Shown piece after piece: positions 14,522 through 38,287 of a stretch of DNA of 64,000 nt (its first letter is position 1; every line of letters starts with the position of its first letter). The position numbers and the translations under genes are program-made. Under the pieces are notes generated by a model. The model saw nothing but the letters and a program-made list of their open reading frames with translations. It was not told where the DNA came from and did not search any database. The DNA comes from a virus (Duplodnaviria; Heunggongvirae; Uroviricota; Caudoviricetes). The stretch lies in IMG/VR virus record IMGVR_UViG_3300022661_000054; one strand, written 5' to 3'.

Positions 14522-14527
14522 TATAAA

Positions 14528-18485: not shown

Positions 18486-19826
18486 TTAGTCTACGATACG
18501 GCCTGCAACAAGGAGAGAATCGTTAAGAAGAGCTTTAGCATACCAAGTACTGAAGCCCTGAGCAAGACCGCCATCAGGAGTACCAAGAAGCTGAGTAGGA
18601 ACGATTGCCATGTAAGGTGCATAAACACCAGCAGAACTCATCATATCGTTACCATTCAAGCCAAGGAAGAACTCACCAGACTTAAGCATAGGAGAAACAT
18701 AAACGTTTAGACCGTCAAGCTCACCAACTTTATAAGGACCATTCATCTTAGCATTCTTAACAGCAGTGAAGCCGTTTACGAAGCGAAGAACAGGAAGAAC
18801 ATCAGAAGCAATTACCATATAGTTAGGATGGAATTTCTTAGTTCTGTTGTAGATGATAGCCTTACCCATTTCAATAACCTCTAAGAAGCCATTGTAATGC
18901 TCGAACTTAGAAACACCAGCAGGAAGGGTCTTAGACCAATCAGCTAGATTATCATCATGTGCGAAAGCAGCGGTGTAGAGCATGTCAACGATCTCAGTAT
19001 CGATTTCATAAGCTAACTCGCCACAAGCCTGCTCAGCAATCTGCTTGTCGAGAGAGAAACCGTAATCAGTCTTAGCCTGGAAAGCAGTAATCTGATCATA
19101 ACGAACAGCAATTCTGCGAGGCTCAGCAACTAGAGGAATATGCTTCATTCTAGGACCGATTGCAGGAATTTCAGTAGCAGGAACTTGTTCCATCTGGAAT
19201 CTATCAATGATATAGGCAACCTTATCGCCTTCTTTAATGCCAGAAATATCATTTGTATATTTACCATTTACTTTATAAGTAGCGGTCATAGGAGCATGGC
19301 TGTCTTCTGCTAAATATTTAAAGCCATCAGCTTTAATAGTAAGGCCAGTGCCCTCTTCACCCTCTTCGAAAGCAAGCTTGCCTTCCGCACCGATAGTCTC
19401 AACAACAACCTGAGAAGTGAAGTTCATACGGGCGTCGTCCATCTTACCATGGCCGAATACGCTGTTGAACATATCATTCTTCTTAACGCCGCCCTTATCA
19501 GTAAGAGAAACGTACTCAAGATAAGCAACAGAACCGCTATAAGAAGTCATAGGATGAACGATAACAAGGTCATTAGCAATAAGAGAAGGAACTGCAATGT
19601 TAGTTAAGTTGAGGCAGAACTTCTTCCAAGCGCCCATGCTATCACGGCTAGTAGCACCGATTTCAGTGTTTAAGGACTCAGTGATCCAACGATTAGTATT
19701 GTCTAAAAGAACAGCAGTAGTAAGAGCTGTATTGCTAGACATAGTTTTGCCTTCAAAGTTCTTAGCAACATAAGCTTCAGCAACTTTGAGCTGGCGAGAA
19801 TAAGTCTCTAAAAGATTTTGTCTCAT
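18486..19826 (-). CDS. Major capsid protein (T4 gp23-like)
   Basis: LIANDLVIVHPMTSYSG, ELAYEIDTEI and AGVYAPY motifs; WITE-S candidate maturation site; strong codon bias. Confidence 0.9.
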   Translation of the reverse strand: MRQNLLETYSRQLKVAEAYVAKNFEGKTMSSNTALTTAVLLDNTNRWITESLNTEIGATSRDSMGAWKKFCLNLTNIAVPSLIANDLVIVHPMTSYSGSVAYLEYVSLTDKGGVKKNDMFNSVFGHGKMDDARMNFTSQVVVETIGAEGKLAFEEGEEGTGLTIKADGFKYLAEDSHAPMTATYKVNGKYTNDISGIKEGDKVAYIIDRFQMEQVPATEIPAIGPRMKHIPLVAEPRRIAVRYDQITAFQAKTDYGFSLDKQIAEQACGELAYEIDTEIVDMLYTAAFAHDDNLADWSKTLPAGVSKFEHYNGFLEVIEMGKAIIYNRTKKFHPNYMVIASDVLPVLRFVNGFTAVKNAKMNGPYKVGELDGLNVYVSPMLKSGEFFLGLNGNDMMSSAGVYAPYMAIVPTQLLGTPDGGLAQGFSTWYAKALLNDSLLVAGRIVD

Positions 19827-19887: not shown

Positions 19888-21852
19888 TTACTTCAATCCG
19901 GCAAGCTCTAGAAGGTCATCATCAACCTCATATCCATATTCTGGGCTTCTGTTTACCTGTTTAGAAACAGATTCAGCAATACGGGCTGAAGTTTTTGTTC
20001 TTCCGCCGAATGGAAGTCTACTGAAACTTACAGTAGAATCAAGGATTTGGTCACAAACAGCATCAACATCTGCTAGAGTGTAGTTTTCATTGAGGCGGCT
20101 TGTAATTTCAGAAGGCTGAACACCTAACATGCTTGCTTTAGATTCAACATATCTAGTAAGTGTTTCAATAAAGCGAGCTTTATATGATTTAGCTAAGTTT
20201 GTTCTTTCCTGAAGTTTTTCAGTATAAACTTTAGTCTGACCTTCTAATTTAGCTTCAAGAGCCTCTGACTTTTTAGTAAGCTTTGAAAGTTCTTCATTAA
20301 GACGTCTCTCAGCAGCTTTACTTGTGTTCATACTCTCTTTTAGCTGTTGTGCGTTATTAACCTTTTCAGTTAATGTTTCAATAGTTTTGCTTGATTGTGT
20401 TAACTTTTCTGTGAGCTCTTTTACTTTAGATTGTAGCTCAGGAACTTTTGCAGCTTCTGCACTAGTATTTCTAAATGCAGTTCTGTACCGTGTTAATTTT
20501 TCTTGTAACTCTTGTTCTTTGGCATCGCCAACTGTCTTAGCCTTACGCAAATCTTTAACTTCGGTTTCCAAAGCTTCCTTCTGACGAATCATCTCTTTTA
20601 AGCTTTCAATTACTTCAACATCTCCGTCATCATCGGCTGTGTCTTCGTCCTCGCCAACTTCTTCGATAGTTTCAACAGGGGTTTCTTCATCTTCAGTTGT
20701 CTCTATATTTGAATCTGCCTCAACTGATTCTTCATCAGTCTCTTTGCAGTGAACACCTAGAACTAAAACAGGCTCTTCACCATCTTCATCTACAAAAGAT
20801 GTGAAGCCGTCTAACTCATGCTCTTCGCCATTGATTTCAACAGGCTCAAGTTCAACTTTAGTGTCATCATCGAACTCCTGGAGAAGCTCAATAGCATCTT
20901 TAACAGTATCAAGATTTTCTGTTTCTGTGTTATCAATATCTACAAATACTTCTGCAGCGGCTTCTTCAGAATCTTCTAAGGGTTCCTCTTCTGTAGCTTC
21001 GTCAGCAATATCCTCAGCAGACTCTTCAGTAGACTCTTCAGTTACTTCCTCAGAAGATTCTTCAGTCACTTCATCGGCTTTATCATCAGAATCTTCATCT
21101 GCAGGCATTTCTTCTACAAGAACTTCTTCTTCAGCATCTGGGTCCATTGGAATATCCTCAGCAGTTAAAACTTTTTTTTCTGCTTTAACTTCTTCATAAG
21201 CCTCAGTAAGTTCTTCTTTAATATCTATATTTAAATTTTCTAAAGCTTTTTTCATAGCATCTTTATCCTCTTCTTTTGCAGCTTTGTAAGACTCTGCAAG
21301 AGCTTTCTTAAGCTTCATACCATTAGAGTCTAAAGATTCACAAACATTAAGTCTTGCTTTTTTAACTGCAGGTAGTTGAACAATATCCCAAGTTTCGAGA
21401 AAAAATGTTTCTGGATCTACTTGATTATTATCCATAACGTCTCCGGAGCCTCGTGAGCTAATTCCGGGAACGAATCCGTAATCTACAAGCGTTTTTAGCA
21501 ATCTACCATTAGGAGTATCTAAAATATCAACATAGGCAACTAAGTCATCACCGACAATTTTAGGAACTTCTGGAATGCAGGCACAAGCTTGCTTCATATC
21601 AGTTTCTTCTCTATCAGCAGGATGCCCTAATTCCAAGAAAAGTGCTTTAGTGGCCACTTTTTCTAAGAAAATGTCATCTTCAAGAGCTTTCTCCCAAAGA
21701 GGTTTATTATATAGTCTTCCGTTTCTAGTACTCTCAACACAAGTAGCGATAGGACCATATAATCTACCTAATATATGCCTAGCTGTCATTTCTTCCTGCG
21801 ATAATGGCTGCATTTGTAACGCTTCAAGAATTCTTTTATTCTTTATATCCAT
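19888..21852 (-). CDS. Prohead protease (gp21-like) fused to acidic/coiled-coil scaffold
   Basis: TRNGRLY, ELGHP, ILDTPNG, GISSRGSG and WDIVQLP protease motifs, then an acidic region and long coiled coil. Confidence 0.88.
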   Translation of the reverse strand: MDIKNKRILEALQMQPLSQEEMTARHILGRLYGPIATCVESTRNGRLYNKPLWEKALEDDIFLEKVATKALFLELGHPADREETDMKQACACIPEVPKIVGDDLVAYVDILDTPNGRLLKTLVDYGFVPGISSRGSGDVMDNNQVDPETFFLETWDIVQLPAVKKARLNVCESLDSNGMKLKKALAESYKAAKEEDKDAMKKALENLNIDIKEELTEAYEEVKAEKKVLTAEDIPMDPDAEEEVLVEEMPADEDSDDKADEVTEESSEEVTEESTEESAEDIADEATEEEPLEDSEEAAAEVFVDIDNTETENLDTVKDAIELLQEFDDDTKVELEPVEINGEEHELDGFTSFVDEDGEEPVLVLGVHCKETDEESVEADSNIETTEDEETPVETIEEVGEDEDTADDDGDVEVIESLKEMIRQKEALETEVKDLRKAKTVGDAKEQELQEKLTRYRTAFRNTSAEAAKVPELQSKVKELTEKLTQSSKTIETLTEKVNNAQQLKESMNTSKAAERRLNEELSKLTKKSEALEAKLEGQTKVYTEKLQERTNLAKSYKARFIETLTRYVESKASMLGVQPSEITSRLNENYTLADVDAVCDQILDSTVSFSRLPFGGRTKTSARIAESVSKQVNRSPEYGYEVDDDLLELAGLK

Positions 21853-24906: not shown

Positions 24907-26958
24907 TTATAAAATAATAATACCGTTCATAATATCTTGGTATGTTTCATATTCTTGTTTTTTCTGTTGAGCTACTACAGCATCAGCTGCAGACATATCA
25001 AAATAAATTTTAGTTAATTCTTCTTCAAAGGAAGCAATCATTTGATGCTTTTTGTAGTCATCAGAGTCAGCTACATTAACATCTAAAGACGTTTCTAGAT
25101 TTTCTCCATAATCATAAGCATATTCTTCTGCAAACTCACTTGCTAAAAATAGTGAACCGCAGACTGCGTCAGCCTGGTCTTTTGAGAAATTTTGTGGGTG
25201 GTCTATATGGCCATCTGAAAGCCTCTCTAAACTGACTATTTCTTCAGTAAGCAATGTACAATCCTTATACATTTGTATATGACGTTCATATATAGCAGAT
25301 TTAAAAAAAGCATATGGTAAACACGTTTTTGTAGAGTTATCTACACGGTCAACAGAAAGTATTTTAGTTTTAAATCCATCACTTTTTAACTGCTGCTGAA
25401 TTTGAGCGCTTTGATAGGTATCCGAGCTGACTCCTTTTATAGCAAAACCTCGGTCTCTTAACCAACGTATAAAGTTTCTATTTTTTTCAAAACTTACTTG
25501 AAATCCTTTAGGGGCTTTGACTGACACAGAAAAAGCTAATTTAAACTCAAGTTCTTTACTCGGGTCACTACTACCTGCTTGCTGAGGGCGTTTTCCGGTT
25601 ATCCAAACACCAGCAATACCAGTTTTGTCTCCAGATAAAGACATATCAAGATGTATAAATAACGGTCTAGCCATGTCCCTAGGATTAACACGTGATAAAT
25701 CAAAGAAGTTAGAGTATTGCATCACATCATCTGGACTATTACCAACTTCAATAACGTCTTTAGTAAATGGATTTCTATAAGTATCTGTCTTTATCTGGTT
25801 TAGACGGACACCTGAGATATATTTAGTCGTACTTGAAGTTGAAATACCTGCATTATCAGTGAGGGCAAGGTCCATGTTATCTTCAAAAGCTTCTCTATAA
25901 ATAGGAGGAACTTTTAGCATAAAGTAACCTTTTTCTCTATAAGCGTTTACTTCTTCTTCAGTAGCATCTATAGGTAGAAGTTCATGCGCTAAGAATTTAT
26001 TACCGACTGCAACATAAAAACTTCCAGGGTCATCTGGAGATCCTTTATCATTTCTCACTACCCACTGTGGTTCATCTACAATTAGAGTTGTCTTACTCTC
26101 ATTTTGTCGCTTCATTTCTATGTACGATTCCATAAAAGCTTGTTCAGAATCTTTTGATGAAGCAATAATATTCATCGTTGGAAGATAGGTGCCTTTACCA
26201 AAACGAGAAATCATACGAGCATCAATCTGAGAAATCATCTTTTTTAATTTTGCTTTTTGTTTTTCTACATTATTACCAACGCCGAAGTTAACTTCATCAG
26301 AAAAGTTTGAAAATAGGGCACGACCAACAACGTGACGATTGCTAGAACCAAATACAAGCTCAATTCCCTTTGGAGGTTGCCACTGTGGGTTTGTTCTACT
26401 AGCGTTCATATTACCGCGTTCCATAAACCAGTCGGAACTTTGTAATAATTGTTGCATTTTATCCCAACCAACACCTTGAGCAGCCTCTAATGTGACGTTT
26501 AGCATTGAGAATGTGATCTTGTCTATTGGCTGCATACCGTAGTATGTATAAGGGTCTTTTAGACACAACATTCTATATAATAAATATAGCTGACATACTA
26601 CTGCGATAAAAGATTTACCAAGACCGATAGAGCCGGTTAAAATTACAGTATTGTATCTTGTAGTTAAGTTATCGGGAAATATCTCTTTTAACTTTTCAAC
26701 CCAATATGGGAATACTGTGCACTTTCGCTCTCCAGTAAACTCATCTTTAATATAGAGTCCACGCCCAAGATAGCGTTCATCCGAAATAAACGTCATTATG
26801 TCTACTGGTACTTCTTCAAAGTCGGAATATTTTAGGTCTTCTAACGTGTTTGAAAAACCTTCTTGCGAGTACTCTTTTAAAATTTCAAGTGCAAGCGCAC
26901 GCTCTTCAGGAGACAGGCTATTTAGTTGTTCTAAACTTATTTCGTTTGATATCATCAA
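24907..26958 (-). CDS. terL: Terminase large subunit
   Basis: Walker A TGSIGLGKS, Walker B FSDE, nuclease HLDMS...KDQADA; adjacent to the portal. Confidence 0.88.
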   Translation of the reverse strand: MMISNEISLEQLNSLSPEERALALEILKEYSQEGFSNTLEDLKYSDFEEVPVDIMTFISDERYLGRGLYIKDEFTGERKCTVFPYWVEKLKEIFPDNLTTRYNTVILTGSIGLGKSFIAVVCQLYLLYRMLCLKDPYTYYGMQPIDKITFSMLNVTLEAAQGVGWDKMQQLLQSSDWFMERGNMNASRTNPQWQPPKGIELVFGSSNRHVVGRALFSNFSDEVNFGVGNNVEKQKAKLKKMISQIDARMISRFGKGTYLPTMNIIASSKDSEQAFMESYIEMKRQNESKTTLIVDEPQWVVRNDKGSPDDPGSFYVAVGNKFLAHELLPIDATEEEVNAYREKGYFMLKVPPIYREAFEDNMDLALTDNAGISTSSTTKYISGVRLNQIKTDTYRNPFTKDVIEVGNSPDDVMQYSNFFDLSRVNPRDMARPLFIHLDMSLSGDKTGIAGVWITGKRPQQAGSSDPSKELEFKLAFSVSVKAPKGFQVSFEKNRNFIRWLRDRGFAIKGVSSDTYQSAQIQQQLKSDGFKTKILSVDRVDNSTKTCLPYAFFKSAIYERHIQMYKDCTLLTEEIVSLERLSDGHIDHPQNFSKDQADAVCGSLFLASEFAEEYAYDYGENLETSLDVNVADSDDYKKHQMIASFEEELTKIYFDMSAADAVVAQQKKQEYETYQDIMNGIIIL

Positions 26959-26995: not shown

Positions 26996-27919
26996 TTACT
27001 TTTTATCTTCCGTTTCTTCGTGTGATGCCTCTGTTGCTTTGGTAGCAGAGGCCTTATTGTCAGAAGTTTCTTTAGTTTCTTTATCCTGTTCTTTAGAAAG
27101 TTTATCAGCATAAACTGGGTTAATATTAGAACCTTTTTTAAACTTTCCACGATTTTTTGCCCAGTCATTAATAACATCGATAAGGTCTTTTCCAGTTTCT
27201 AAGTCTTCATTATCAGCTACTATTTCATTCTCAGCTGCTTCATCGGCAGGCACTCCATAAAGCTTTGGAAATACCAATTTTAGGAAAGCTTCTGGTTTTT
27301 TCTCAGATAAGAAATGACAATAGTTATTAATTACAGAGCTGACACGCATCATCCAGTCACCATTAGCTAATACTAATAATGAGTGTTTACAACCTCTACC
27401 TTTATCATCGTTGGGGTTTGCAATACCTTTGCCGGGTCCTGGGTCTTTAGAAGAATCATCAACAGACACATTTTTTAAGATATTCCAGTGAGCAAAGCGA
27501 TATTTAAAATCTGGACAAGTACATTTTATATAAACATCTGTAGTATTAAATACTTTTGTCAATGCTTGAACAATTGTTCTATATTCAAGTTTATTGCCGT
27601 TATTTTTTATATTCTTATTAATTTCAGCAACAACGCCCTCAAGTTTAATAGTAACAGTATACTCATCGCTTTCTCCGACGACAGGAATATTCACTAATAA
27701 AATATCCTGTTTAAAAAGTGAGTTCATGTCTATCTTATTATAGCTTTTAACAGCATTAGCAAGTTTAGAGTACTTCTTTCTTTGGAATCTATTAGCGCCT
27801 CTTTCTTTGTTTTTATACACACCAACGTTTCTAGACTGTGCTATGAGAGAAGTACGATTAGCTTCTGTTAGTTTAAGTAATTCAGTTAAGCATTGTTCCT
27901 GAAGAGTTTGTTTTCTCAT
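26996..27919 (-). CDS. SWIM zinc-finger protein
   Basis: IKCTCPDF...GCKH SWIM signature; own late motif; N-terminal L-x-E cluster. Confidence 0.7.
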   Translation of the reverse strand: MRKQTLQEQCLTELLKLTEANRTSLIAQSRNVGVYKNKERGANRFQRKKYSKLANAVKSYNKIDMNSLFKQDILLVNIPVVGESDEYTVTIKLEGVVAEINKNIKNNGNKLEYRTIVQALTKVFNTTDVYIKCTCPDFKYRFAHWNILKNVSVDDSSKDPGPGKGIANPNDDKGRGCKHSLLVLANGDWMMRVSSVINNYCHFLSEKKPEAFLKLVFPKLYGVPADEAAENEIVADNEDLETGKDLIDVINDWAKNRGKFKKGSNINPVYADKLSKEQDKETKETSDNKASATKATEASHEETEDKK

Positions 27920-27952
27920 TACTATTTAAGTCCTTTCAAATGAATTACTGTA

Positions 27953-27962
27953 TAATTTAGCA
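27953..27962 (-). promoter_or_regulatory. Putative late promoter TGCTAAATTA
   Basis: Motif copy upstream of the SWIM gene. Confidence 0.7.
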
Positions 27963-27976
27963 AATTATTTAGAGAT

Positions 27977-28012
27977 AAAAAATAAAGAGTGCCTACTTCA
28001 GCACTCTTTATT
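27977..28012 (-). terminator. Intrinsic terminator
   Basis: AATAAAGAGTGC...GCACTCTTTATT. Confidence 0.75.
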
Positions 28013-28016
28013 AATT

Positions 28017-29483
28017 TTACATATTTACGTCAATAGTTCCACGAATATCATAGTGTTTAGTAGGTAACTGTGTAGTTGCCATTTGGCTAAAATCATACTT
28101 ACCATTTTCATGCGTACTAGCTTCAATAACAAAAGGTAAACTTCTGACAGCTCTAAGTACTGAGCTTATTTCTGAGGCCTTTAGGTTATAGATATAAAAC
28201 ATTCCATTATCTTGAATTACAGGCGGATGTTGATTTGCCATTTTAGTAATTTGATTATATATATCAAGACGTTTTTTATTGTCTAAGCGTTCTTCTAAAG
28301 AAAGTCGTTTAGATACAAGTTCATTTCGATATTCTTTAAACTTATCTAGATAACCTTTATTACGAAGCTCTTTAAAAGCTAAATTTTCTATTGAATATTC
28401 ACCTTTTGATATTCCTTTTTTACGAAGTTTTTCATAAATATCTTCAAGTATCTTTACAACCTTTTTTTCGTCATCTAGCTTATCTGATTTTATATCATCG
28501 ATAAGTTTTTTACAGTCAGCTTCCCATTCAGCTACAAGCTCATCAAGTGCCTTAGTATCATATTCTGGAATATCTTCAGCTACAGGCTTTTTAATCCATT
28601 TGTTTTTCTTTACTGAATATACACCATTGCTAACTCTAGCACTGTCCTCAGTCTCAACAAAGATCTCTAATGGAATATCATAAAGCTTTATATCAAGTTG
28701 TTTATTAAAAATAGTTCTATAAGCGCCATATAAAGCTGCTGCGATCTCTTTGTCATATTTGGCAGCTTTTGCATTAGCTAGTACATGTAGGTCTATATCA
28801 CTATCTTTTGTGTAGTTATAACTAGCATTAGAACCAATAAATATTATATCTTCAACTTTTATTCTAATATCTTGCTCTTTTAAATCGGCTAAAAATTCAT
28901 CTACAATTTCTAGCATTTTATCTCTAACACGATCTTTTAAAAGTTCTTCTTTTGTAAATAATTTTGAATTTAAAGTATTATGCTTTTCTACTGCTTCATT
29001 AAGGTTTGCTACATCTTTTTGTGAAATTTGTTCTATAAGTTCTGTAACAGAAACTTGATCACATAAACTTGCAATATACTGTGCGTCGTTTAGCCAAACA
29101 TTATTAGCAACATTTTTAAGATCATTTGATGTATAGCCCCAGTTTTTAATTGCACGCTTTAGCTGGTCAATAAGTTCCTGCCAATCAATTGCTATTGCGA
29201 CTATTAAATACTTTAAAGCTATATCAAGCTTAGGTTGAGGTGCTTTTCTTCTAACTTTAGTATTAGCAGCCTTATTATAAGAAGCCATTGATTTATTATA
29301 TTTACCAATACTTACATTATATGAAATTCCCCAAGGAGTTTCATTAAAATGCGCTTTGTTCCATGCATCTCTGTCTGGTGTTCCTTGTTTAGCCTCATAA
29401 CTTAGTTTGGCAGTTAAGAGTTTTTCAAAGTCCTCTCTACTAGGTATTACTAATTTAGGGTCTGTTATTTGTGGTACTGCCAT
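28017..29483 (-). CDS. Pol-beta superfamily nucleotidyltransferase with extra N- and C-terminal domains
   Basis: IFIGSNASYNYTKDSDIDLHV (GS...DxD) plus LEIFVE; start at MAVPQ with AAGGAGG RBS. Confidence 0.8.
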   Translation of the reverse strand: MAVPQITDPKLVIPSREDFEKLLTAKLSYEAKQGTPDRDAWNKAHFNETPWGISYNVSIGKYNKSMASYNKAANTKVRRKAPQPKLDIALKYLIVAIAIDWQELIDQLKRAIKNWGYTSNDLKNVANNVWLNDAQYIASLCDQVSVTELIEQISQKDVANLNEAVEKHNTLNSKLFTKEELLKDRVRDKMLEIVDEFLADLKEQDIRIKVEDIIFIGSNASYNYTKDSDIDLHVLANAKAAKYDKEIAAALYGAYRTIFNKQLDIKLYDIPLEIFVETEDSARVSNGVYSVKKNKWIKKPVAEDIPEYDTKALDELVAEWEADCKKLIDDIKSDKLDDEKKVVKILEDIYEKLRKKGISKGEYSIENLAFKELRNKGYLDKFKEYRNELVSKRLSLEERLDNKKRLDIYNQITKMANQHPPVIQDNGMFYIYNLKASEISSVLRAVRSLPFVIEASTHENGKYDFSQMATTQLPTKHYDIRGTIDVNM

Positions 29484-29484
29484 A

Positions 29485-30237
29485 TTAATCCTCCTTAACA
29501 GCTCGCATAGGAACAACAAATTTTAAGTTACAACCGTCGCAACAGCGCCCGTCAGCTGATGACATAAAAGGCTCAGGATTATTTCCATGACCTTCAACAG
29601 GTTCTCCGCAGATACAACAGAAATTTTCTTTAGCTTCTGTTAGCTTTTCACCGTATACATTATAATCATCAAAATCTAAGTTAAAGAAGCTTTCTTCTAA
29701 CTCTGTAGCATCAGTCATACGGTCGGAGTACTCTGCTTTGAATTCTTTTTCAGGCGCTTTAGCAACATTTGCAAAATGTTTACGATCTTCTTCTTTTTTG
29801 ATAGAAAGATCGTAATCCATGACTTTTACTTTATTTTTATCGTAAAGAATTCCATCGTCATAGTAATAAATAATATCACTATTCATAAGCTTTGAAACGT
29901 CTTTATCGTCGCCTAGATTATTTAAGGTATAAATAGAGCAGTTAGCATTACCAATTTCAATTAGAGCTTTAATAATTTCTGCTTTATTGCTGCAGAATAA
30001 ATTCTGTGGGCGGATGTAGTAACGACGTACATATCTTTTTGCTTCAGTAAGTGCGCCTCCTTCTGATACAGCAGCATCTATGGTTGCACCTTGGTCAAAA
30101 TCTGTACCCATAGCTTTATTAAATCTATCAATATTTAACCCAATACTACCGGTGGTATAACCTATAGAGTCACATACTTTTTTAGTTCTGCGTCTTCTCT
30201 TTTTGGCTTCAGCCATAGCTTCTTTATTTGTAGTCAT
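29485..30237 (-). CDS. Hypothetical protein with C-terminal Cys-rich Zn finger
   Basis: CCICGE...GNNPEPF...CCDGCN; basic N-terminus; LTEA sites. Confidence 0.6.
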   Translation of the reverse strand: MTTNKEAMAEAKKRRRRTKKVCDSIGYTTGSIGLNIDRFNKAMGTDFDQGATIDAAVSEGGALTEAKRYVRRYYIRPQNLFCSNKAEIIKALIEIGNANCSIYTLNNLGDDKDVSKLMNSDIIYYYDDGILYDKNKVKVMDYDLSIKKEEDRKHFANVAKAPEKEFKAEYSDRMTDATELEESFFNLDFDDYNVYGEKLTEAKENFCCICGEPVEGHGNNPEPFMSSADGRCCDGCNLKFVVPMRAVKED

Positions 30238-30268
30238 TAGAAGTATTCTCCTTATGAAAAGTATATTT

Positions 30269-30324
30269 AAAAGAAAGACGGAACGCAGCGGTGGTGAAAG
30301 GCTAAGTCCACCGCCACGACCATC
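30269..30324 (-). ncRNA. Candidate small structured RNA / attenuator hairpin
   Basis: GC-rich long hairpin plus U-tract starting 3 nt after a late motif. Confidence 0.45.
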
Positions 30325-30327
30325 GTA

Positions 30328-30337
30328 TAATTTAGCA
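30328..30337 (-). promoter_or_regulatory. Putative late promoter TGCTAAATTA
   Basis: Motif copy abutting the upstream terminator. Confidence 0.7.
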
Positions 30338-30340
30338 AAA

Positions 30341-30376
30341 AATAAAACACCTTAAAAAATATTAAGGTGTTTTATT
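30341..30376 (-). terminator. Intrinsic terminator
   Basis: AATAAAACACCTTAA...TTAAGGTGTTTTATT. Confidence 0.8.
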
Positions 30377-30380
30377 ATAT

Positions 30381-30833
30381 TTAGTTACCATAAAGGTCTT
30401 CATCAGAAATAGGCTCACCAGAAGGCTCATCGAAATCTACAAAATATTCGAAAGGCTCAAAGTCAGTACTGTGTATTTTAGTGTTATCTGGAACTTCGTC
30501 GTAAGAAGCTTCATAATTTAGTTCAATGTCTGCAGTAACTTTAGGTTCTACTGCTACTTCTACTTCTGGGGTTTCTACAGGTGCATTAGGTACAGCACAG
30601 TCTTCAGCCGCTAAACTAGCATCGCTAGTTAAATTTTCCAAACCGCCTATAAAAACATAATAACTAGTAAGTAGGTTTTTAAGTAGTTGAACTAAAGCAA
30701 TATTTTCTTTAGTTGTTTCTATGTTTTCAATCTGATGCTGTAGATGTTCAATATCTTGCCAACTTTTAACTTCTAAGTCATTTAGAAAGTCTTTAGTAAT
30801 TTTTATTTTATCTTTTAATTCGTATGTACTCAT
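30381..30833 (-). CDS. Hypothetical acidic protein
   Basis: 150 aa, last gene of the AAA/zincin/vWA operon. Confidence 0.55.
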   Translation of the reverse strand: MSTYELKDKIKITKDFLNDLEVKSWQDIEHLQHQIENIETTKENIALVQLLKNLLTSYYVFIGGLENLTSDASLAAEDCAVPNAPVETPEVEVAVEPKVTADIELNYEASYDEVPDNTKIHSTDFEPFEYFVDFDEPSGEPISDEDLYGN

Positions 30834-30842
30834 TTAGTCTCC

Positions 30843-32642
30843 TTAAGCGTCAGCAGTACTGAACGAGAATTGCTGTGTACCTCCACGTCCTTTAAGATCG
30901 CGTGGCAGTCTAGGTGCATTTATACCATCACGCCATAGGTACCAAACATAACCTGGAACAATATATGATAAAGCTTTTGGACCATTCCACCAATTTTCCA
31001 TATCAGCGTCAGTCATGATAATAACATTTGTTGCTTGCGTACTAATAACATTTTTAACAATTTCATTCCAACCAGAGGTACCGCCAGAAGCACGAGCGTC
31101 TCCTGCATCCGTATAAACATCATCAGAAAAGTAAAATATATTTATTTTAATTTGTCCATTTTCTTCCATTTCAACTAGTTGTTGAACAGCTTTTTGTCCT
31201 ACAGCAATATCACTCTCATCCCAAGAACCAGACTGGTCAAAATAAAAGTCAATAACTGGAATTTTCTTGTTTGATAACTCATTTATTTTTTTACCAGGCT
31301 GAAGTACGCCAGCGCCCATGTTACGTCTACTAATAGCACCCCAAGAGTCATCACGAGTTTCTTCTACGTGAACTTGTAGTGCTATGGCTCTATACAAACT
31401 ACTTAAAAAGTCTTGGAAGCCTTTAAAAGAGCTTCTAGCACGAGCTTTATATTTATTTGCTTCTTTTTCGCGTGCTTGAACTGCTTGGGTCTCAGCACGA
31501 ATTTGTGCTATATCTTCTGCAGATAATTCTTGCTGTGTTCTAGTACTAGCTATATCATCTTTGATTTCTTGTGCTTGAAGTGCACGATCTTCATCAGACG
31601 TAAATGTAAGGTCAGAGTCACCTAGAGCTTCTATCGCATCAAATACTCTGTTAATCAATAAATTGAATTCATCATCAGAAATATCTTTTAAACTTTTTGA
31701 AACTGCTTCAGTAAGCGATTCCAGAGCTTCTATGGCTTTTTCTAGCTCACGTACTAGACTAGCTGAAGCTTTTTTAGTTTTTGCTTTATCTAAAGCAACT
31801 TTAGCAGCCTGTAGTGTACGTTCACGCTTTATTTTACGGGCTTCCTGTTTTGTTTTGGCAGTTTCATCATCAAAAGTATCTCTTAGATTATCATCTAATA
31901 AGTCATCTTCATCAAAGTCTTCGATGTCATCGTCATCAGATAGCTCATTATCATCATAGCCGTCTGACGCAGCAGCATCATCTGATTCATCGCCGTTTAG
32001 CTCACCGGTATCATCGCTGAGTTCATCTGTATCTGTAGAAGACTCAGTACCATCAGCTGCTTCAGAATTGTCGTCAACATCAGAGTCGTCCTCTGTGCTA
32101 TCTCCGTCAGCATCTGCTGAGGTTTCGTCACTTGTAGAATCGTCTGTTTCTGCATCAGTAGGTGTTTGTTCATCATCCGACTTTTCAGCATCTTTAGAAG
32201 TACCATCCCCTATGCTATCATCATCAGAAGCAGTGTCAGTGGTATCGTTTGAGCCGTCAGTATCACCGCTATCATCTGTACTATCGGTTGTATCACTATC
32301 AGCACCAGAGCTTGATGAATTACTAGATGAATCAGAATTGTTACTAGAATCATCTTCAGGGTCGTTATATTGTACCTGATCAAGGATATTATCTTCATCC
32401 TCAATTTCTACATCATCATTACTGCCAGGTGCTTGGTGTTTTCTCGATGGCTGAAGTAGATCAGGGTCTATCTCAACGTCTTCAGCACCACCGCCACCAC
32501 CAGCTACTCCAGCTCCACCTCCAAAATTAGGTGGTGGAGTTCTTGAATCTAAAATAGCTTCGATTGCCTCTAAAGCTCCTCGTTTTGCTTCTGGATTTGT
32601 TAAGTCTAAACCAAGACTATCTAAAATATCTTTAATATCCAT
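30843..32642 (-). CDS. vWA (MIDAS) domain protein with long acidic linker
   Basis: VIDFYFDQSGS (DxSxS), GGT and VIIMTD; a long D/S/T-rich segment in the N-half. Confidence 0.8.
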   Translation of the reverse strand: MDIKDILDSLGLDLTNPEAKRGALEAIEAILDSRTPPPNFGGGAGVAGGGGGAEDVEIDPDLLQPSRKHQAPGSNDDVEIEDEDNILDQVQYNDPEDDSSNNSDSSSNSSSSGADSDTTDSTDDSGDTDGSNDTTDTASDDDSIGDGTSKDAEKSDDEQTPTDAETDDSTSDETSADADGDSTEDDSDVDDNSEAADGTESSTDTDELSDDTGELNGDESDDAAASDGYDDNELSDDDDIEDFDEDDLLDDNLRDTFDDETAKTKQEARKIKRERTLQAAKVALDKAKTKKASASLVRELEKAIEALESLTEAVSKSLKDISDDEFNLLINRVFDAIEALGDSDLTFTSDEDRALQAQEIKDDIASTRTQQELSAEDIAQIRAETQAVQAREKEANKYKARARSSFKGFQDFLSSLYRAIALQVHVEETRDDSWGAISRRNMGAGVLQPGKKINELSNKKIPVIDFYFDQSGSWDESDIAVGQKAVQQLVEMEENGQIKINIFYFSDDVYTDAGDARASGGTSGWNEIVKNVISTQATNVIIMTDADMENWWNGPKALSYIVPGYVWYLWRDGINAPRLPRDLKGRGGTQQFSFSTADA

Positions 32643-32662
32643 TTGTTATAACTCACCTTTCT

Positions 32663-33820
32663 TTATACGTCTTTTATAGCATCTCGTATTTGAGTTAGAA
32701 CATCATCATCAAATTTACTTGAGTCCAAAGTTTTAACTACTTTATTCCAAGCATCTTTATATTCTTGCGAATTTGCCTTTTTCTTTATATTAAATTTTTG
32801 TGGATTATAGTTAATATTATCACCCATATTTTTTAAAACGTCAGAAGCCAACATTTTATCTTCAGGCGTGTACAATGAGCAAATAACTTCGCCTGTTTTT
32901 GGGTGCGTTATATCAAAAACTTCTTGCGGATCTGTTAAAGAAATTTCTTTAACGATGTCTAAAAGTTCTTGCTTTTCTGCATCTGACTCCATGTCTTTTA
33001 AAGCTTCATAGACAGTGATAACTAGCTTTTTATAGATATCAGCATAGTTGTTAAAAGCCTTTGATTTAATAAATATGTCCATAGGTGCACGAATGCCAGA
33101 AGGACGCATAAAGTCGCTATATCTAGTAATAAGCTCGGCACCTTCCATTTTCATCATATCAACTTCATTATAAGTACCATCTTTAATTGGTTTCCAATTT
33201 GGGTCACTTCTGATCTCACTATTGATTTTAATTAATTCTTTAGACAGTTCATCATACATAGCCTCAAGAGTCATGTTTGCCCAATTGCCTCTATGGTCTT
33301 CAGTCACTAATCCACCAATAACTTTACCATTTAGTTGCATAGCACGTACGATTTTTTTATCTGTAGAAGTATATCTTTTATTAGATATTTCAAAGTCCTC
33401 GATGCAGTTTAAAATCCTATGAAGACTTGAACTATAACGAATATGTTCATAGGCTTCATCAGGGTCATTTGCATGAAGCTTCTTAAAAACATACATCAAT
33501 CTAATTTGATGCATCATTAAGTTATGAGCTAGCTCATGACGTAATAATACATCTAATTGATTAAAAATGCCTTGACCGCTACCTAAAAAGCCATCACTAA
33601 TAAACACAGTTGCTTCATCAAAAGAAATAGCAGCTGTAAAGTCAGGATGCTTTTTAGAATCAATAATATTAAAGTCCAATTTCCAAAATCGCTCTGCATA
33701 CTTTCTATGACCTTTATCTATTAAAAGCTGACAGAGAGCTTTTTTTGTGCGGCGCTCTCTGTCAGTCATAAAGTGTCTTGTAATTGCAGAAGATTCTAAC
33801 AATGCTTTATTTATGTGCAT
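32663..33820 (-). CDS. Zincin-like metallopeptidase (DUF2201 N-terminal-like)
   Basis: LRHELAHNLMMH HExxH and NCIEDFEISN; lies between the AAA and vWA genes. Confidence 0.7.
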   Translation of the reverse strand: MHINKALLESSAITRHFMTDRERRTKKALCQLLIDKGHRKYAERFWKLDFNIIDSKKHPDFTAAISFDEATVFISDGFLGSGQGIFNQLDVLLRHELAHNLMMHQIRLMYVFKKLHANDPDEAYEHIRYSSSLHRILNCIEDFEISNKRYTSTDKKIVRAMQLNGKVIGGLVTEDHRGNWANMTLEAMYDELSKELIKINSEIRSDPNWKPIKDGTYNEVDMMKMEGAELITRYSDFMRPSGIRAPMDIFIKSKAFNNYADIYKKLVITVYEALKDMESDAEKQELLDIVKEISLTDPQEVFDITHPKTGEVICSLYTPEDKMLASDVLKNMGDNINYNPQKFNIKKKANSQEYKDAWNKVVKTLDSSKFDDDVLTQIRDAIKDV

Positions 33821-33850
33821 GCTATATTCTCCTTTAAACAGAGTGTTGAA

Positions 33851-35287
33851 TTATAGTGAGAAGTCAAAACTCTTAATACGATTTAAAGCATCTGAAGCGC
33901 TAACTTTTGCTGAACTGCCCGCAGCGGAAGCAGTCGAGCCGAATAAGTCAGAGTCAGTTTCTTCACCGGCATCACCAAATACACTATCAAAATCACTATC
34001 ATCTATATTAGAGTTAGACTGTTGAGCAGTATTATTTGCAGCAGGAGCTGCTTTAGTAGGCTCTGAGCCATCAGGTAATGCAACATCAAGTTCTACCCAA
34101 GGATCTAGTATTTCATGAATCATCTCTTTATCCTTATCTAAGAACTTTGAGTACTTATCAACCCAATTTAAGAACTTATCTTTATTATAACCATGTGACA
34201 TGAGAGCATCTGTAATAGCACGTTGGTTTAGCATTTTAGCCTTATCATTAAATAGATCAAGTAAGTCATCACGGCTATCAAACTCAAAACGTGGGTCGTT
34301 AATTAACGCATTAGCTAAATTCATAATTTTATTATAGCGAATATAGAAGAAGTTATAATTTTCATCTTTAGGATCTAATGCTTCTAATAGTTTATTTAAA
34401 TGGAAAACAATATATCTGATTGCATCGTCAGGCTTTGAGTCCCAATCCATAGTATCTACAAAACGTGACATTTCAGCATCATTTAAATCCATAGCACCAG
34501 GGTCTGTTGGAACCGATGGGTTTATACATGCAACGGTAAAAAGTAAATTTTTGAATTCTCTCGTACCGTCTTTATTAGGACCCTCAACAGTATGCTCATT
34601 AATAAGTGTAAGAAGTGACGCACGAAGCTTTGGAGCTGCACGGTTAAACTCATCTAAGAATAGAACAGAATTTGGTTCTTCTAATCCATCAAGAGCAGTA
34701 GAGAATGAACGTTTTACTTTATGAACCTCATTACCATCTGCATCTGTTTCAACAGAATCAACAGGGAAGCCATTTAGAATTGCTCCAAGATCATCGTTCT
34801 TAGCGTTTAGATAGAAAAGATTTACACCTCTATCCTTTGCCCATTGCTTAGTAATACCAGTCTTACCAGAACCAGGCAATCCACATACTAGCAAGTCGAC
34901 ACCGTCTTTAGCCCCAGATGCATGTGCAGCCATAGCGTTAGCTAGGCAGTCATCTAGTTTGTCAGTTAATTCACTCGGTACATCAAGCGGTGCCCAAGCT
35001 GTAACGTCTAGTCCTTTTGCATGTGTTTTAATTTCTTTTGCAATAGTTTCTGCTTTTTCGTCTGAGTAGGTCTCCTTACCATCAGAAGCAGCTTCTGCAG
35101 CATCTTGAACAACATCTGCAATTTCATCGACAGAAGCTGTTGATACATCATCAATAGTTAAGTCATCTACAGTGGAGTCTTCCGCAGTCATTTCATCCTC
35201 AGTAAGCTCAGCAGCCTCAGCTATTTTCTCTAATTCTTCAACTGCTTTAGCAGTGCTTTCTACCAACTTTTGTTTAAGTATTCTCAT
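33851..35287 (-). CDS. MoxR-family AAA+ ATPase
   Basis: GLPGSGKT, LFLDEFNRA, ACINP and AEMSRF; start at MRILK with AAGGAGG RBS; acidic N-terminal extension. Confidence 0.85.
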   Translation of the reverse strand: MRILKQKLVESTAKAVEELEKIAEAAELTEDEMTAEDSTVDDLTIDDVSTASVDEIADVVQDAAEAASDGKETYSDEKAETIAKEIKTHAKGLDVTAWAPLDVPSELTDKLDDCLANAMAAHASGAKDGVDLLVCGLPGSGKTGITKQWAKDRGVNLFYLNAKNDDLGAILNGFPVDSVETDADGNEVHKVKRSFSTALDGLEEPNSVLFLDEFNRAAPKLRASLLTLINEHTVEGPNKDGTREFKNLLFTVACINPSVPTDPGAMDLNDAEMSRFVDTMDWDSKPDDAIRYIVFHLNKLLEALDPKDENYNFFYIRYNKIMNLANALINDPRFEFDSRDDLLDLFNDKAKMLNQRAITDALMSHGYNKDKFLNWVDKYSKFLDKDKEMIHEILDPWVELDVALPDGSEPTKAAPAANNTAQQSNSNIDDSDFDSVFGDAGEETDSDLFGSTASAAGSSAKVSASDALNRIKSFDFSL

Positions 35288-35303
35288 TAGTATTACCTCC
35301 TTA

Positions 35304-36356
35304 TTAATCTCTACGCATCCAAGTGTGAAGTTCATCAAGTTCTTCTTTGCTGTAGCCTTCAGTTGCTTTTTCCCAGCTTACAGCGCGTTCTACAGCTTCT
35401 TCAATATCTTCAAAAGATTCATTTAATGTGGCGGCCTTAATAACACATGGACCGAACTCAGTTCCAACCATAAAGTATCCGCCAGTCTGATTACCATTTT
35501 CATCTGTTTGAATTTTATCAGCTTTATTTTTAACGACCTGTAAACCAGATACATTCACAGGAATAGCATTAGCATTAATAATAGCATCTAAAAATGCTTG
35601 TGCGTCATTCGGGTCATCGAAGAAACATGTACAGTCGGTATAACCATTACCACTACTGATACAAACTTTATTAGTATTACCAACAATATATTTAGGATTA
35701 GTGGCTAAAGGTTTTACATGTACTATTGCTGCATTTTTAGAATTATCTAATTTACCTTTAATATAGTAAATCCACTCAGTGTCCGCCTGAAGTCTGGTAC
35801 CGGCAGTTCCAGGATTTCCAGGAAGATCAATAAGGTCTCTAACTTTGCTGAGCTGCGAACCAGATTGTTTATAGCCATTTTTAGGTGCCTGACCTGAAAT
35901 TCTCGCAGAAGCTGCCCTAGGAGCTCTATTTGATATAGCTGAAATATATCTACCGTATTTATAAACAGCATCACCTAACAATGTCTTTTTAAACTCATCT
36001 ATCTCATATGGTGTTCTAACAGTGTCATCCCAGTAGAGTTGTAACGCATCAGCTAACCAAACAATAGCTTTTGCAACTACTTCTGGTTTAAATGATTTAT
36101 TTTTGCCGCTACCGTCATAATTTACTCTATAGTAATAACGAGACATTTCTCTAAGCTGATTATCTAGATCTGCAAAATCTCTATTTACTAACTCATTACA
36201 GATCTCTTGAGCGGCAGTAACATAGCTTGGACGTGAAAAAGTACCTGGTGTATTAGTTCGTAGGTTTTTTTGATTTATACCGCCGGCAACAGTAATATCA
36301 TGCATAAGTGATTTTGCTGCTTGTTCTGCCTCTGGCGTAGTAAAAATACGAGCCAT
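35304..36356 (-). CDS. Hypothetical late protein, first gene of the AAA operon
   Basis: 350 aa, AAGGAG RBS, late motif upstream, TLNES near the C-terminus. Confidence 0.55.
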   Translation of the reverse strand: MARIFTTPEAEQAAKSLMHDITVAGGINQKNLRTNTPGTFSRPSYVTAAQEICNELVNRDFADLDNQLREMSRYYYRVNYDGSGKNKSFKPEVVAKAIVWLADALQLYWDDTVRTPYEIDEFKKTLLGDAVYKYGRYISAISNRAPRAASARISGQAPKNGYKQSGSQLSKVRDLIDLPGNPGTAGTRLQADTEWIYYIKGKLDNSKNAAIVHVKPLATNPKYIVGNTNKVCISSGNGYTDCTCFFDDPNDAQAFLDAIINANAIPVNVSGLQVVKNKADKIQTDENGNQTGGYFMVGTEFGPCVIKAATLNESFEDIEEAVERAVSWEKATEGYSKEELDELHTWMRRD

Positions 36357-36395
36357 ATTAACTCTCCTTTATTTTAATAATATTTTTAAATCAAT

Positions 36396-36405
36396 TAATT
36401 TAGCA
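36396..36405 (-). promoter_or_regulatory. Putative late promoter TGCTAAATTA
   Basis: Motif copy heading the AAA/zincin/vWA operon. Confidence 0.7.
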
Positions 36406-36433: not shown

Positions 36434-38287
36434 CTAATCAATACTAATAATACCTCTACATTTTGGAAATGTGGAGCACCCATAAAACAACTTTCCGAAT
36501 CTGCTTCGTCTAACTATCATTGGCTCACCACAATTTGGACAAGTTTTTTCAGGCATCTCTGGTGCTATGCCAGTTTCATTAGTATCTTTAATAACTCCTT
36601 GTAAATTTTTATAGAAGATTTCCATATAGTCCAGCATAGCAACTTTACCAGCTGCAATTTTGTCTAACCGTTCTTCCATTTCTTTTGTATAGTTTACATT
36701 AACCAACGTTGGGAAAGATCGATCACAATAATCTGCTAGTTGAAGGCCTCTGTCGGTTGGAACTATGTGTTTTTCTTCCAGTTTGGCATATCCGCGTGAT
36801 GGACTTAGGATAGTTTCTACTATACTAGCATAAGTAGACGGTCTCCCAATCTCTCTCGCTTGAAGTTCTTTAACCAAACTTGCTTCTGTAAATCGTGCTT
36901 TTGGTTGAGTAAATTTTTGTATAGTTTCTAATTCAGTATCTTGTAATACTTCACCTACAATAAACGATTCTGGACAACCAAAAATTTGATTATCTTCAAA
37001 TTCATAAGCTGCTTTATATCCAGTATCCAATAACTCCTTAGAACTTAAACTAAACTTATGATCATTATTATTTATTGTATAAACAGTTTCTGCTATGGTA
37101 GCAGCAGGCATTACAGAAGCAATAGTACGTTGCCAAATTAATTTATATACTTTTGTAAGAAGTGGATTATTTATATGTGTGGACAGTATTTCAGGTGTCA
37201 TATTAGGGTCTACCACCCTTAGCGCTTCGTGTCCGTCTTGGTCTGTAGACTTCTTTTTACTCTTTCTAGGACCAACGTATTTTTTACTACCATAAGTGCT
37301 TTCTATAAAAGTTTTAAGTTCTGGTAAAAATTCAGCTGTAATCTCTGTTGAATCTGTCCTCATGTATGTAATTAGCCCGACGTGTTCTCCATTTACTTTA
37401 ATACCTTCAAAAAGTTTTTGAGCACAGCTCATTGCATCTTTAACTCTTAAACCAAGTCTGGTAGCAGCTTCTTGCTGAAAAGTTGCGGTACAAAAAGGTT
37501 GTTTTGGAGATTCCTTGTGTTTAGTTGTTGCTGTATTTTCTACAGTATATAGAGAATTTTTACAATCAGCCACCACGGCGTCTACATCAGTCTGCTTATT
37601 AAATTTATTAATAATTTCTTGTTTATATCCGGAGTATTTTGCTTTAAATGCATTACCACATTTAGTAAAATTTAGATATAGGTTAAAATATATTTCAGGA
37701 ATAAATTCACTTATTTCCTTTTCGCGTTCTGATACTAGTTTAAGTCCGACAGACTGACAACGGCCCACCGACTTTGCACCAATATACTTTTTTACAATTG
37801 GTGAAAGCGAGTAGCCAATAAGTTTATCTGTCATTATTCTAGCTAATCCTGCATCTACTAAGTTATTATCAAAAGGCACAGGATTTTCTATTGCACTGAC
37901 AACAGCTTTTGGTGTAATTTCGTGCATTACAACCCTAAAAGTTTTTTCTATTGGTAAGTTGCAAAATTTTACTAGACTCCAAGAAATTATTTCTCCTTCT
38001 CTATCATTGTCAGATGCAACATAAATTCTATCTACAGAAGTAGCTTTAGTAGCAATCTCATCTACTATTTTTTTCTTGTCGTCGGCAACAACTAAATTCA
38101 TATTAAAGTTCTTTTTTGGGTAAATGCCTGAGTTGTATGCGGGACCACCGTCTGCTAGCTTCATAATATGTCCAACTGAAGCCATCACTACTGCTTTTGT
38201 ATATCCAGCTCTCTTCAGAATTCCTGATATAGTTTTTAATTTATTTGGCGACTCAACAATTACTAATATTTTATCTGTTTTATTCAC
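36434..38287 (-). CDS. topA: DNA topoisomerase IA
   Basis: IVESPNK, ASDNDREGE, SVGRCQS, LITYMRTDS, GIGRPSTY-like motif and a C-terminal Zn ribbon. Confidence 0.93.
   Translation of the reverse strand: MNKTDKILVIVESPNKLKTISGILKRAGYTKAVVMASVGHIMKLADGGPAYNSGIYPKKNFNMNLVVADDKKKIVDEIATKATSVDRIYVASDNDREGEIISWSLVKFCNLPIEKTFRVVMHEITPKAVVSAIENPVPFDNNLVDAGLARIMTDKLIGYSLSPIVKKYIGAKSVGRCQSVGLKLVSEREKEISEFIPEIYFNLYLNFTKCGNAFKAKYSGYKQEIINKFNKQTDVDAVVADCKNSLYTVENTATTKHKESPKQPFCTATFQQEAATRLGLRVKDAMSCAQKLFEGIKVNGEHVGLITYMRTDSTEITAEFLPELKTFIESTYGSKKYVGPRKSKKKSTDQDGHEALRVVDPNMTPEILSTHINNPLLTKVYKLIWQRTIASVMPAATIAETVYTINNNDHKFSLSSKELLDTGYKAAYEFEDNQIFGCPESFIVGEVLQDTELETIQKFTQPKARFTEASLVKELQAREIGRPSTYASIVETILSPSRGYAKLEEKHIVPTDRGLQLADYCDRSFPTLVNVNYTKEMEERLDKIAAGKVAMLDYMEIFYKNLQGVIKDTNETGIAPEMPEKTCPNCGEPMIVRRSRFGKLFYGCSTFPKCRGIISID

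Follow-up and report, generated by a model that had tools for sequence, protein, structure and literature searches.

Results and Discussion

Targeting of proteins to the capsid by a short leader, followed by gp21 cleavage, is established for phage T4, and head processing of many proteins is known from phiKZ-like phages; we know of hardly any such cargo outside these two models. The IMG/VR virus record IMGVR_UViG_3300022661_000054, of which a stretch of 64,000 nucleotides (the window) was analysed, raises the question of whether a block of eight genes transcribed ahead of the terminase gene terL encodes cargo of this kind, as an earlier note on this DNA had proposed. The block is best explained as a late, head-linked gene set, syntenic among relatives and under a motif common to head and tail genes, and its sequences suggest that the leader-bearing late enzymes may be loaded into the capsid. 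In our judgement the chances are about even that several block proteins are recruited into the prohead core by leaders and trimmed by a gp21-family protease after Glu in [L/I]-x-E.

All genes of the window are on the minus strand, as are all the window features described below. The eight open reading frames (ORFs) of the block occupy 26996-36356, between a topoisomerase gene and terL (24907-26958), which is 3′ of the block in transcription order. In this order they encode B1, of unknown function (35304-36356, 350 aa); B2, a MoxR-type AAA+ ATPase (33851-35287, 478 aa, from the start MRILKQ chosen by its ribosome-binding site); B3, a DUF2201_N-like HExxH zincin (32663-33820, 385 aa); B4, a vWA protein (30843-32642, 599 aa); B5, small and acidic (30381-30833, 150 aa); B6, a Zn-finger protein (29485-30237, 250 aa); B7, a pol-beta-type nucleotidyltransferase, NTase (28017-29483, 488 aa); and B8, a SWIM-motif protein (26996-27919, 307 aa). 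The enzyme block and the gene types that had been read from the sequence were borne out by Pfam matches, motif conservation and direct reading.

The Prohead Protease and Its Reference Substrate

The T4 gp21-type protease that the earlier note had invoked was found in the window. The gene at 19888-21852 encodes a 654-aa product, the N-terminal part of which is a prohead protease of the Peptidase_S77/gp21 family (PF03420, E = 3.2e-13, 50.1 bits against a cut-off of 27; also phrog_207), followed by a scaffold-like acidic and coiled-coil region. The catalytic His and Ser of the gp21 family (Peptidase_S77/U9) are present, and the GHP and GISSRG motifs are conserved in relatives, the distant locus L047 included. 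The protease-scaffold protein begins MDIKNKRILEA, with ILEA encoded at 21820-21831; conserved [VIM]-x-E-S sites are found where its protease domain ends and close to its C-terminus.

The portal is of the T4 type (gp20 family; Pfam Portal_T4, 2.7e-35), and the capsid protein belongs to the Gp23 family (Pfam, 2.2e-28). The capsid sequence ITES at residues 48-51 (19674-19685), with a predicted cut after E50, served as the reference site. At this position [ILM]-[TS]-E-[SA] is kept in all relatives, persists at 41% identity (L047) and is followed by a variable linker, a pattern that fits a T4-like delta-domain cut.

N-Terminal Leaders

Four block proteins of the window begin with a leader of 9-19 residues ending in [LIM]-x-E: MoxR (E10), the zincin (E9), the Zn-finger protein (E10, weak) and the SWIM protein (E19). 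The format, M-x-I-x-K...[LI]-x-E-[SA], resembles the N-terminus of the protease itself. The MoxR leader ends in LVES (residues 8-11; 35255-35266), with a predicted cut after E10, and M-K-I-x-K...[LI]-x-E-[SAD] was found in 12 of the 13 distinct N-termini, including at 33% identity; next comes an acidic linker that is hypervariable (conservation 0.17, gap fraction 0.79). The zincin leader, present in 10 of 12 distinct N-termini, ends in LLES (7-10; 33791-33802); L-x-E-[SA] occurs within the first 20 residues in all five lineages, as LLES, LTEA, LEEA, LREA and LQEA, with P2 free. The SWIM protein has LTEA (17-20; 27860-27871) and a leader in 8 of 10 distinct N-termini; L and E do not vary, six residues occur at P2 (T, N, D, E, L, Y; conservation 0.20), and P1′ is A, or D in distant lineages. 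The Zn-finger leader, ending in MAEA (8-11; 30205-30216), is weak, recurring in 5/11 to 5/12 distinct N-termini.

Directly after the MoxR leader, the orthologues L011:529-2163 and L015:121-1761 have an insertion of about 70 residues. The overlap of the MoxR gene with the B1 stop region was considered as the origin of the conservation of this leader and rejected: the overlap covers codons 1-6, and the L-x-E-S codons lie outside it.

Counted by distinct N-termini, leaders amounted to 43% in the block, against 11% in replication and in neck/tail proteins. In distant lineages similar leaders were found on other members of the block, namely B5 and the vWA protein in L039, the vWA protein and the NTase in L040, and the NTase in L042, and also on several ORFs around the MoxR module of L045. 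The L039 orthologue of B5 begins MKINKNIKLNES, a leader resembling that of the L039 MoxR protein.

Enrichment, Conservation and Position of the Sites

All the peptide sites quoted in the earlier note are present in the sequence. Enrichment was tested against within-protein shuffles, which correct for composition. The pattern [LIV]xE[SA] occurred 15 times in the block against 6.8 in the shuffles (P = 0.004) and 30 times against 20.7 in terL and the structural proteins (P = 0.03), and was not enriched in the 34 replication-side proteins (15 against 19.7). In distant relatives with a full block the observed and expected numbers were 11 and 6.1, 11 and 7.0, and 12 and 6.5. When all 8000 a-x-b-c patterns were scanned, LxEA was found 11 times in block and head proteins against 3.2 expected (P = 5e-4).

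Conservation was assessed in alignments that included distant lineages; a site was scored as kept when present in at least 75% of the sequences, and twelve decoy motifs served for comparison. In the block proteins 8 of 16 [LIVM]xE[SA] sites were kept, against 12 of 87 decoy sites (Fisher P = 0.0026), and for [LIM]xE the values were 22/36 and 107/471 (P = 2.6e-6). In replication proteins of the same loci 11 of 37 sites were kept against 114 of 336 decoys (P = 0.71). Because of the capsid reference substrate, the decoy test and their position at linkers, the L-x-E sites are, as judged from these alignments, selectively conserved at linker borders more than by chance. Conservation of P3 and P1 was 0.83-1.0 at the internal linker-border sites and 0.42-0.92 at the leader sites of the MoxR, zincin and Zn-finger proteins; P2 was variable at most sites, and one flank was hypervariable or gapped.

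Outside the leaders, candidate sites lie at the borders of folded regions. B1 has a candidate C-terminal processing site, LNES (L311-S314; 35415-35426), where [LI]-N-E-[AS] is found in 11 of 12 sequences and in four of four distant lineages; over the 25 columns downstream, conservation drops to 0.26 with a gap fraction of 0.50. In the AF2 model of B1 (pLDDT 66.8) this site is at the end of the fold, which consists of an N-terminal helical domain and a beta-rich domain, and precedes a disordered stretch (residues 312-335) and a C-terminal helix (337-348). It recalls the C-terminal processing of T4 Alt and gp21 (PMC9026906). The internal site of the vWA protein, LTEA (310-313; 31704-31715), is kept in 10 of 12 sequences, and in its region L039 has LQEA, with IHEA nearby in L040. 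In the Zn-finger protein, LTEA (63-66; 30040-30051) immediately precedes the conserved KRYVRRYY core; conservation is 0.12 upstream (gap fraction 0.73) and 0.91 downstream, P2 is T, C or K, and the corresponding linker of distant lineages contains [LIM]xE[SA]. A further LTEA of this protein (199-202; 29632-29643), ahead of the Zn-finger, appears as L-[TV]-E-[AGS] in 11 of 11 sequences and is preceded by an insertion-prone linker. Between these two internal sites the L023 protein has an insertion of about 90 residues; together with those after the MoxR leader, it suggests that exactly the proposed cut points tolerate insertions.

The NTase site, LNEA (161-164; 28992-29003), lies where the lineage-specific N-terminal domain (160 aa) meets the NTase domain. 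Its consensus is L-x-E-[AD]-[VI]-EKH, with conservation of 0.33 upstream and 0.79 downstream, and homology to cyanophage, Lak phage and Maribacter phage proteins starts at about residue 135-169, around the site. B5, which has a conserved acidic C-terminal peptide, is without a site in the window. Cutting by the zincin of the block was also considered and set aside as less economical, since in this gp21-family system the capsid and the protease-scaffold have sites with the same motif.

Promoter Motif and Transcription Units

According to the earlier note, the block falls into three transcription units, each headed by the motif GCTAAATTA like the capsid and tail operons, and this could be confirmed. 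The motif has 14 matches in the window, all on the coding strand, against 2.6 expected, and none of 100 shuffles reached 14. It is intergenic in 11 of the 14 cases, usually right after a hairpin with a T-run and 35-100 nt before a start codon. The late-type copy at 36396-36404 heads unit 1 (B1, MoxR, zincin, vWA and B5), and in relatives, L040-L042 included, it is 47-86 nt upstream of the B1 orthologue. Unit 1 ends in a terminator-like hairpin and T-run (30337-30372, read from the sequence), directly followed by the motif of unit 2 (30328-30336; Zn-finger and NTase genes). Here the motif is succeeded by a leader of about 95 nt with a GC-rich hairpin before the Zn-finger gene (30240-30327), and the spacing from motif to gene start is +88 to +100 in most relatives, with the exception of L040 (+12), which suggests that 30240-30327 may be a conserved regulatory leader or small RNA. 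After the hairpin and T-run ending unit 2 (27975-28007, likewise read from the sequence), the motif at 27953-27961 heads the SWIM-terL-portal unit, and it stands at +39 to +43 from the SWIM start in relatives, L040 and L042 included. No copy was found between the SWIM gene and terL in the window.

Down to 25-35% protein identity, a copy of the motif precedes the B1, Zn-finger and SWIM genes in those scanned relatives that cover the stretch concerned. Close relatives also have one in front of the genes for the protease, g130 and the adaptor, and L047 has one in front of its protease gene. Because the same positions carry the motif in the genomes of relatives, GCTAAATTA is, by this comparison, a real conserved signal common to block and virion genes. 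Two intergenic copies inside the replication region, at 52426-52434 and 55577-55585, precede small ORFs to which no function was assigned, so that the motif is not exclusive to virion genes.

The Block in Related Phages

A scan of IMG/VR with terL gave 22 loci with 85-92% terL identity, on contigs of up to 233 kb, and each locus that was long enough had this block in unchanged order, with 50-85% identity. A scan with the MoxR alignment added four lineages (L039-L042) at 25-60% identity, in which the order topoisomerase, B1, MoxR, zincin, vWA, B5, Zn-finger, NTase, SWIM, terL was observed within the reach of each locus; L040 covers the full series from topoisomerase to terL. Altogether, about 30 IMG/VR relatives keep the block, its order and its promoter positions, down to 25-35% identity. 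More distant phages of the MoxR scan retain only MoxR, zincin-vWA and sometimes the NTase; in L047 the MoxR module directly follows the capsid gene, and in L045 it is about 7 kb from it. Throughout the relatives, all four enzyme types have retained their catalytic motifs.

Zincin and vWA form one protein of 562-582 aa in L043 (10955-12643) and L047 (11032-12780). Since the two are fused there and the L043 protein matches DUF2201_N (PF13203; 24.2 bits against a cut-off of 23.2), B3 and B4 of the window (30843-33820) are, by homology, a split version of the metallopeptidase-vWA partner of MoxR. The pair represents a gene fission or fusion within this phage MoxR partner, and the vWA protein of the window has acquired an insert, about 200 aa of acidic low-complexity sequence.

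Some of the relatives appear to use recoded stop codons. In block genes aligned by tblastn, in-frame TGA was counted 28 times in 2981 codons of L040, six times in L039 and three times in L042, and 12 in-frame TAG were found in L045; full-length ORFs were restored by code 4 (L039, L040, L042) and code 15 (L045). The window is clean with code 11.

Among isolated phages, the nearest by terL have only 29-35% identity, and a megablast search with the block gave no match at the DNA level. The region upstream of terL in Bacillus phage HSE3 has no synteny with the block. A tblastn search with the zincin gave no match, and for MoxR there were only weak AAA+ matches.

Properties of the Individual Block Proteins

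B1 has no Pfam or PHROG match. MoxR matches AAA_3 (33.6 bits, cut-off 27) and AAA_5 (28.7 bits, cut-off 22), and its Walker A (GLPGSGKT) and Walker B (LFLDEFN) motifs are kept in all lineages. The zincin itself has no Pfam match; its RHExxHxxxxH motif is kept in nine of nine lineages, and it is linked by BLAST to the fused L043 homologue at 32% identity. In the vWA protein, a conserved N-terminus precedes about 200 aa of acidic low-complexity sequence and a coiled coil, and the vWA domain at the C-terminal end is assigned from its MIDAS motif DxSGS (DQSGS), which is kept in eight lineages; no Pfam vWA model matched. In the Zn-finger protein (CCICG...CCDGCN, read from the sequence) the core is 54-63% identical in distant relatives and the N-terminal region varies from 60 to 480 aa; an ESM Atlas search gave no usable match. 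The NTase matches NTP_transf_2 at a borderline 21.3 bits (cut-off 21) and phrog_36119, and its GS-x10-DxD catalytic core is conserved in all lineages.

B8 has no Pfam match at E<0.01; its CxCxnCxH signature (CTCPDF...GCKH, read from the sequence) is present and conserved. Its homologues SP15_038, HSE3 gp067 and LIS04_65 are in the neck modules of Bacillus phages SP-15 and HSE3 and of Listeria phage LIS04. Residues 25-198 align with this family at 26-31% identity, with CxC...CxH conserved; B8 differs in its location before terL instead of in a neck module and in being longer at both ends, having acquired a leader of about 20 residues at the N-terminus and an extension of about 110 at the C-terminus. 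The SWIM loci compared were 26996-27919 of the window and L024:14995-15549, L001:34143-34688 and L059:8893-9447; the module that hosts the family is the neck in Thornevirus-like Bacillus and Listeria phages. B8 as a small terminase was rejected in view of the homologues in neck modules. Foldseek searches of the PDB with the AF2 models of B8 (pLDDT 60) and B1 gave no convincing fold match (best E 0.25-0.54), nor did the VIA wide structure search with B8 (best Z 3.2), and these absent matches say nothing on the novelty of either fold.

Weighing of the Alternatives

Several of the results count against recruitment and trimming of the block proteins in the prohead. In the window, B1, the vWA protein, B5 and the NTase lack an N-terminal leader, and when leaders are counted by family, the block (3/8) does not differ significantly from the others (2/18; P = 0.28). 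The zincin leader directly adjoins a well-conserved region, and its conservation is hence not diagnostic. In distant relatives P1′ shifts towards Asp. The Fisher values overstate significance, as relatives are not independent samples, the contrast between block and replication genes being internal to the data. The motif count that had been put forward as a check held for the block compared with the replication genes and failed in the scan of all patterns, where LxEA ranked only 4th of 8000 and was not significant after multiple-testing correction; LxEA is also about 2-fold over expectation in replication proteins. Site conservation in related phages, likewise foreseen in the earlier note, held against the decoys, and did not extend to the most distant lineages: the MoxR, zincin-vWA and NTase proteins of L043, L045, L046 and L047 showed no enrichment (1 against 1.6, 1 against 1.6, 1 against 2.6, and 5 against 4.1). 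As for the NTase site, it may belong to the fold of the enzyme, because the ORF of L039 begins 14 aa upstream of the site. The third unit does not stand apart from the packaging genes, the SWIM gene being the first of the terL-portal operon, and the homologue of B8 is a 184-aa protein encoded between the neck protein and the sheath. On this comparison B8 is more aptly regarded as a virion or morphogenesis protein that has been relocated than as an enzyme, and the label 'non-structural' given to it by the earlier note is doubtful.

A head-building role of the MoxR-vWA pair is a serious alternative. In its full form it would make the block an unpackaged late morphogenesis module, in which MoxR and the (zincin-)vWA protein act as a cytoplasmic head or neck assembly factor and the SWIM protein as a neck or head-completion protein; the conserved L-x-E would serve otherwise, for example as acidic peptides captured by the vWA MIDAS or as helix or linker structure. 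MoxR-vWA couples are classic assembly chaperones (PMC7159879), with tail development of an archaeal virus among their proposed tasks (PMC7159879, PMC4124505), and the MoxR pair of phage 0305phi8-36 is among non-structural genes (PMC2147016). The neck homologues of the SWIM protein, the travelling of the module with head genes (as in L047 and L045) and the core MoxR and zincin-vWA proteins of distant phages without site enrichment all agree with it. It leaves unexplained a leader that is common to non-homologous block proteins and the protease-scaffold and that is found on one block member or another depending on the lineage, as well as the same motif at the maturation site of the capsid, and under it the NTase and the Zn-finger protein are left without a role. 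We regard the unpackaged module as possible, if doubtful; a chaperone could also act inside the prohead, so that a head-building role as such would be compatible with prohead residence. The enzymes might instead act late in the producing cell, in host manipulation, anti-defence or, for the NTase, modification of nucleotides or RNA, unpackaged, with no role in assembly and with incidental sites. Purifying selection acts on the catalytic motifs of each of the four enzyme types, and homologues of the NTase occur outside such a block in T4-like cyanophages and Lak phages, both in favour of this reading; against it stand the tight and ancient linkage of the block to terL and head genes, the selective conservation of L-x-E sites at linkers and the leaders shared with the protease, which make it improbable. 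That the motif pattern results from chance and composition, Leu, Glu and Ala being common in helical acidic proteins, with the motif picked post hoc, appears very improbable. The rank of LxEA, its excess in replication proteins, the similar enrichment of AxEA and the leader test by family speak for it, but shuffles that correct for composition still gave P = 0.004, the decoy-controlled conservation was positive in the block and negative in replication genes, and the motif had been set beforehand by the specificity of the gp21 family.

Neighbouring Genes and Related Loci

By its gene content the window is that of a myovirus with a T4-type head module. In transcription order it opens with replication and recombination genes (DnaB, primase, a split family-A polymerase, clamp, RecA and clamp loader), and on the same side there are a PD-(D/E)XK nuclease, SbcCD and the topoisomerase at 36434-38287. 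The family-A DNA polymerase is split into two adjacent ORFs (57529-60557), of which one (625 aa) comprises the exonuclease and the start of the polymerase domain and the other (383 aa) the remainder. The replication genes are of bacterial type, and no virion RNA polymerase was seen in the window. Downstream of the capsid gene, genes for the adaptor, sheath, tube and baseplate hub follow.

After the capsid gene, the 327-aa protein encoded at 17380-18363 begins MDRRRFFNDKSLTEG, a leader-like N-terminus, and its gene has its own GCTAAATTA promoter at 18407; it is a further candidate for a processed head protein. ORFs around the MoxR modules of two distant relatives are strongly enriched for [LIV]xE[SA], with 21 sites against 6.9 expected in L045 and 19 against 8.4 in the non-block ORFs of L043. 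In L045 these are the ORFs at 5992-7959, 11707-12771, 14280-15821 and 15829-16188, several of which start with [IL]-x-E-[AG]-F leaders. From their site content, the site-rich ORFs near the MoxR modules of L043 and L045 may encode head-internal proteins of those lineages.

Proposed Mechanism and Comparison with Known Systems

In the mechanism proposed for recruitment and trimming, the leaders would bind the scaffold core and would be cut by the S77 protease after Glu in [L/I]-x-E. The mature MoxR/zincin/vWA machine, the NTase and the Zn-finger protein would stay in the head and exit with the DNA. By analogy with other MoxR-vWA pairs, the machine could then use ATP to remodel a protein complex, either in the virion or in the cell that has just been infected. 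We propose only tentatively, at somewhat less than even chances, that an uncultivated phage clade of 130-230 kb loads a whole MoxR and split zincin/vWA machine for ATP-driven remodelling, an NTase and a Zn-finger protein into its capsid by T4-style leaders and delivers them ready for use with its DNA. The 'host-takeover or anti-defence' role that the earlier note gave to the block is pure inference, and injection of the block products as such a module is speculation.

Among the closest known systems is that of the T4 capsid-targeting sequences, carried by the internal proteins IPI-III and Alt and processed by the prohead protease gp21. The leaders of T4 internal proteins are 10-19 residues long, and positions 8 and 10 determine their processing; both ends of Alt are cleaved, and gp21 carries LIE-9 at its N-terminus (PMC9026906); the T-even internal proteins have only the targeting sequence in common (PMC3012670). 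The window has a protease of the same family together with capsid and portal proteins of T4-type families, and its leaders are likewise of 9-19 residues ending in [L/I]-x-E, with an N-terminal site on the protease itself. One cargo class is enzymatic, as is Alt, and diverse candidate cargo has only the leader in common, in our case as known from the sequence alone. The window proteins differ from the T4 system in having no sequence homology to T4 internal proteins or Alt. They are large multi-domain enzymes (AAA+ ATPase, zincin, vWA, NTase) instead of small basic proteins, several of their sites are internal, at domain borders, and their genes form a fixed syntenic block before terL, in contrast to a hyperplastic locus.

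The phiKZ-like giants (substrates of SPN3US gp245 and phiKZ gp175) are also large phages with a gp21-related protease. Many of their head-internal proteins, some of them enzymatic (virion RNA polymerase), have N-terminal propeptides of 20-24 or 111-254 residues that are cut after Glu (PMC10052503). The site is A-x-E or S/A/G-x-E in those phages and L/I-x-E in the window, and no homologous proteins were found.

The MoxR/vWA pairs of the DUF2201_N type and the p618-p892 pair of the archaeal virus ATV resemble the window in that MoxR is adjacent to a predicted vWA protein with an intact MIDAS; the zincin-vWA fusions of L043 and L047 match the DUF2201 type, and the genes are separate in the window. 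The ATV MoxR ATPase, p618, is a major virion component, binds the vWA protein and has also been proposed as a tail-assembly factor (PMC4124505). The window pair differs in the long acidic low-complexity region of its vWA protein, in its protease-type leaders and in the position of the module beside the head genes of a tailed phage.

It is plausible, from the sequence comparison, that the mechanism itself is a known one, that of the T4 targeting sequences and of phiKZ-type head proteolysis, and that the candidate cargo is unprecedented. If the proposal is true, the block products would be injected cargo of a new class, and by the leader rule the capsid cargo of phages with T4-type heads could be predicted from the sequence alone. 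If the leaders work as proposed, internal and ejected proteins would become predictable in many metagenomic phages of this type, and the very common, unexplained MoxR-vWA (CobS/CobT-like) modules of phages would gain a role in the virion or in the first moments of infection.

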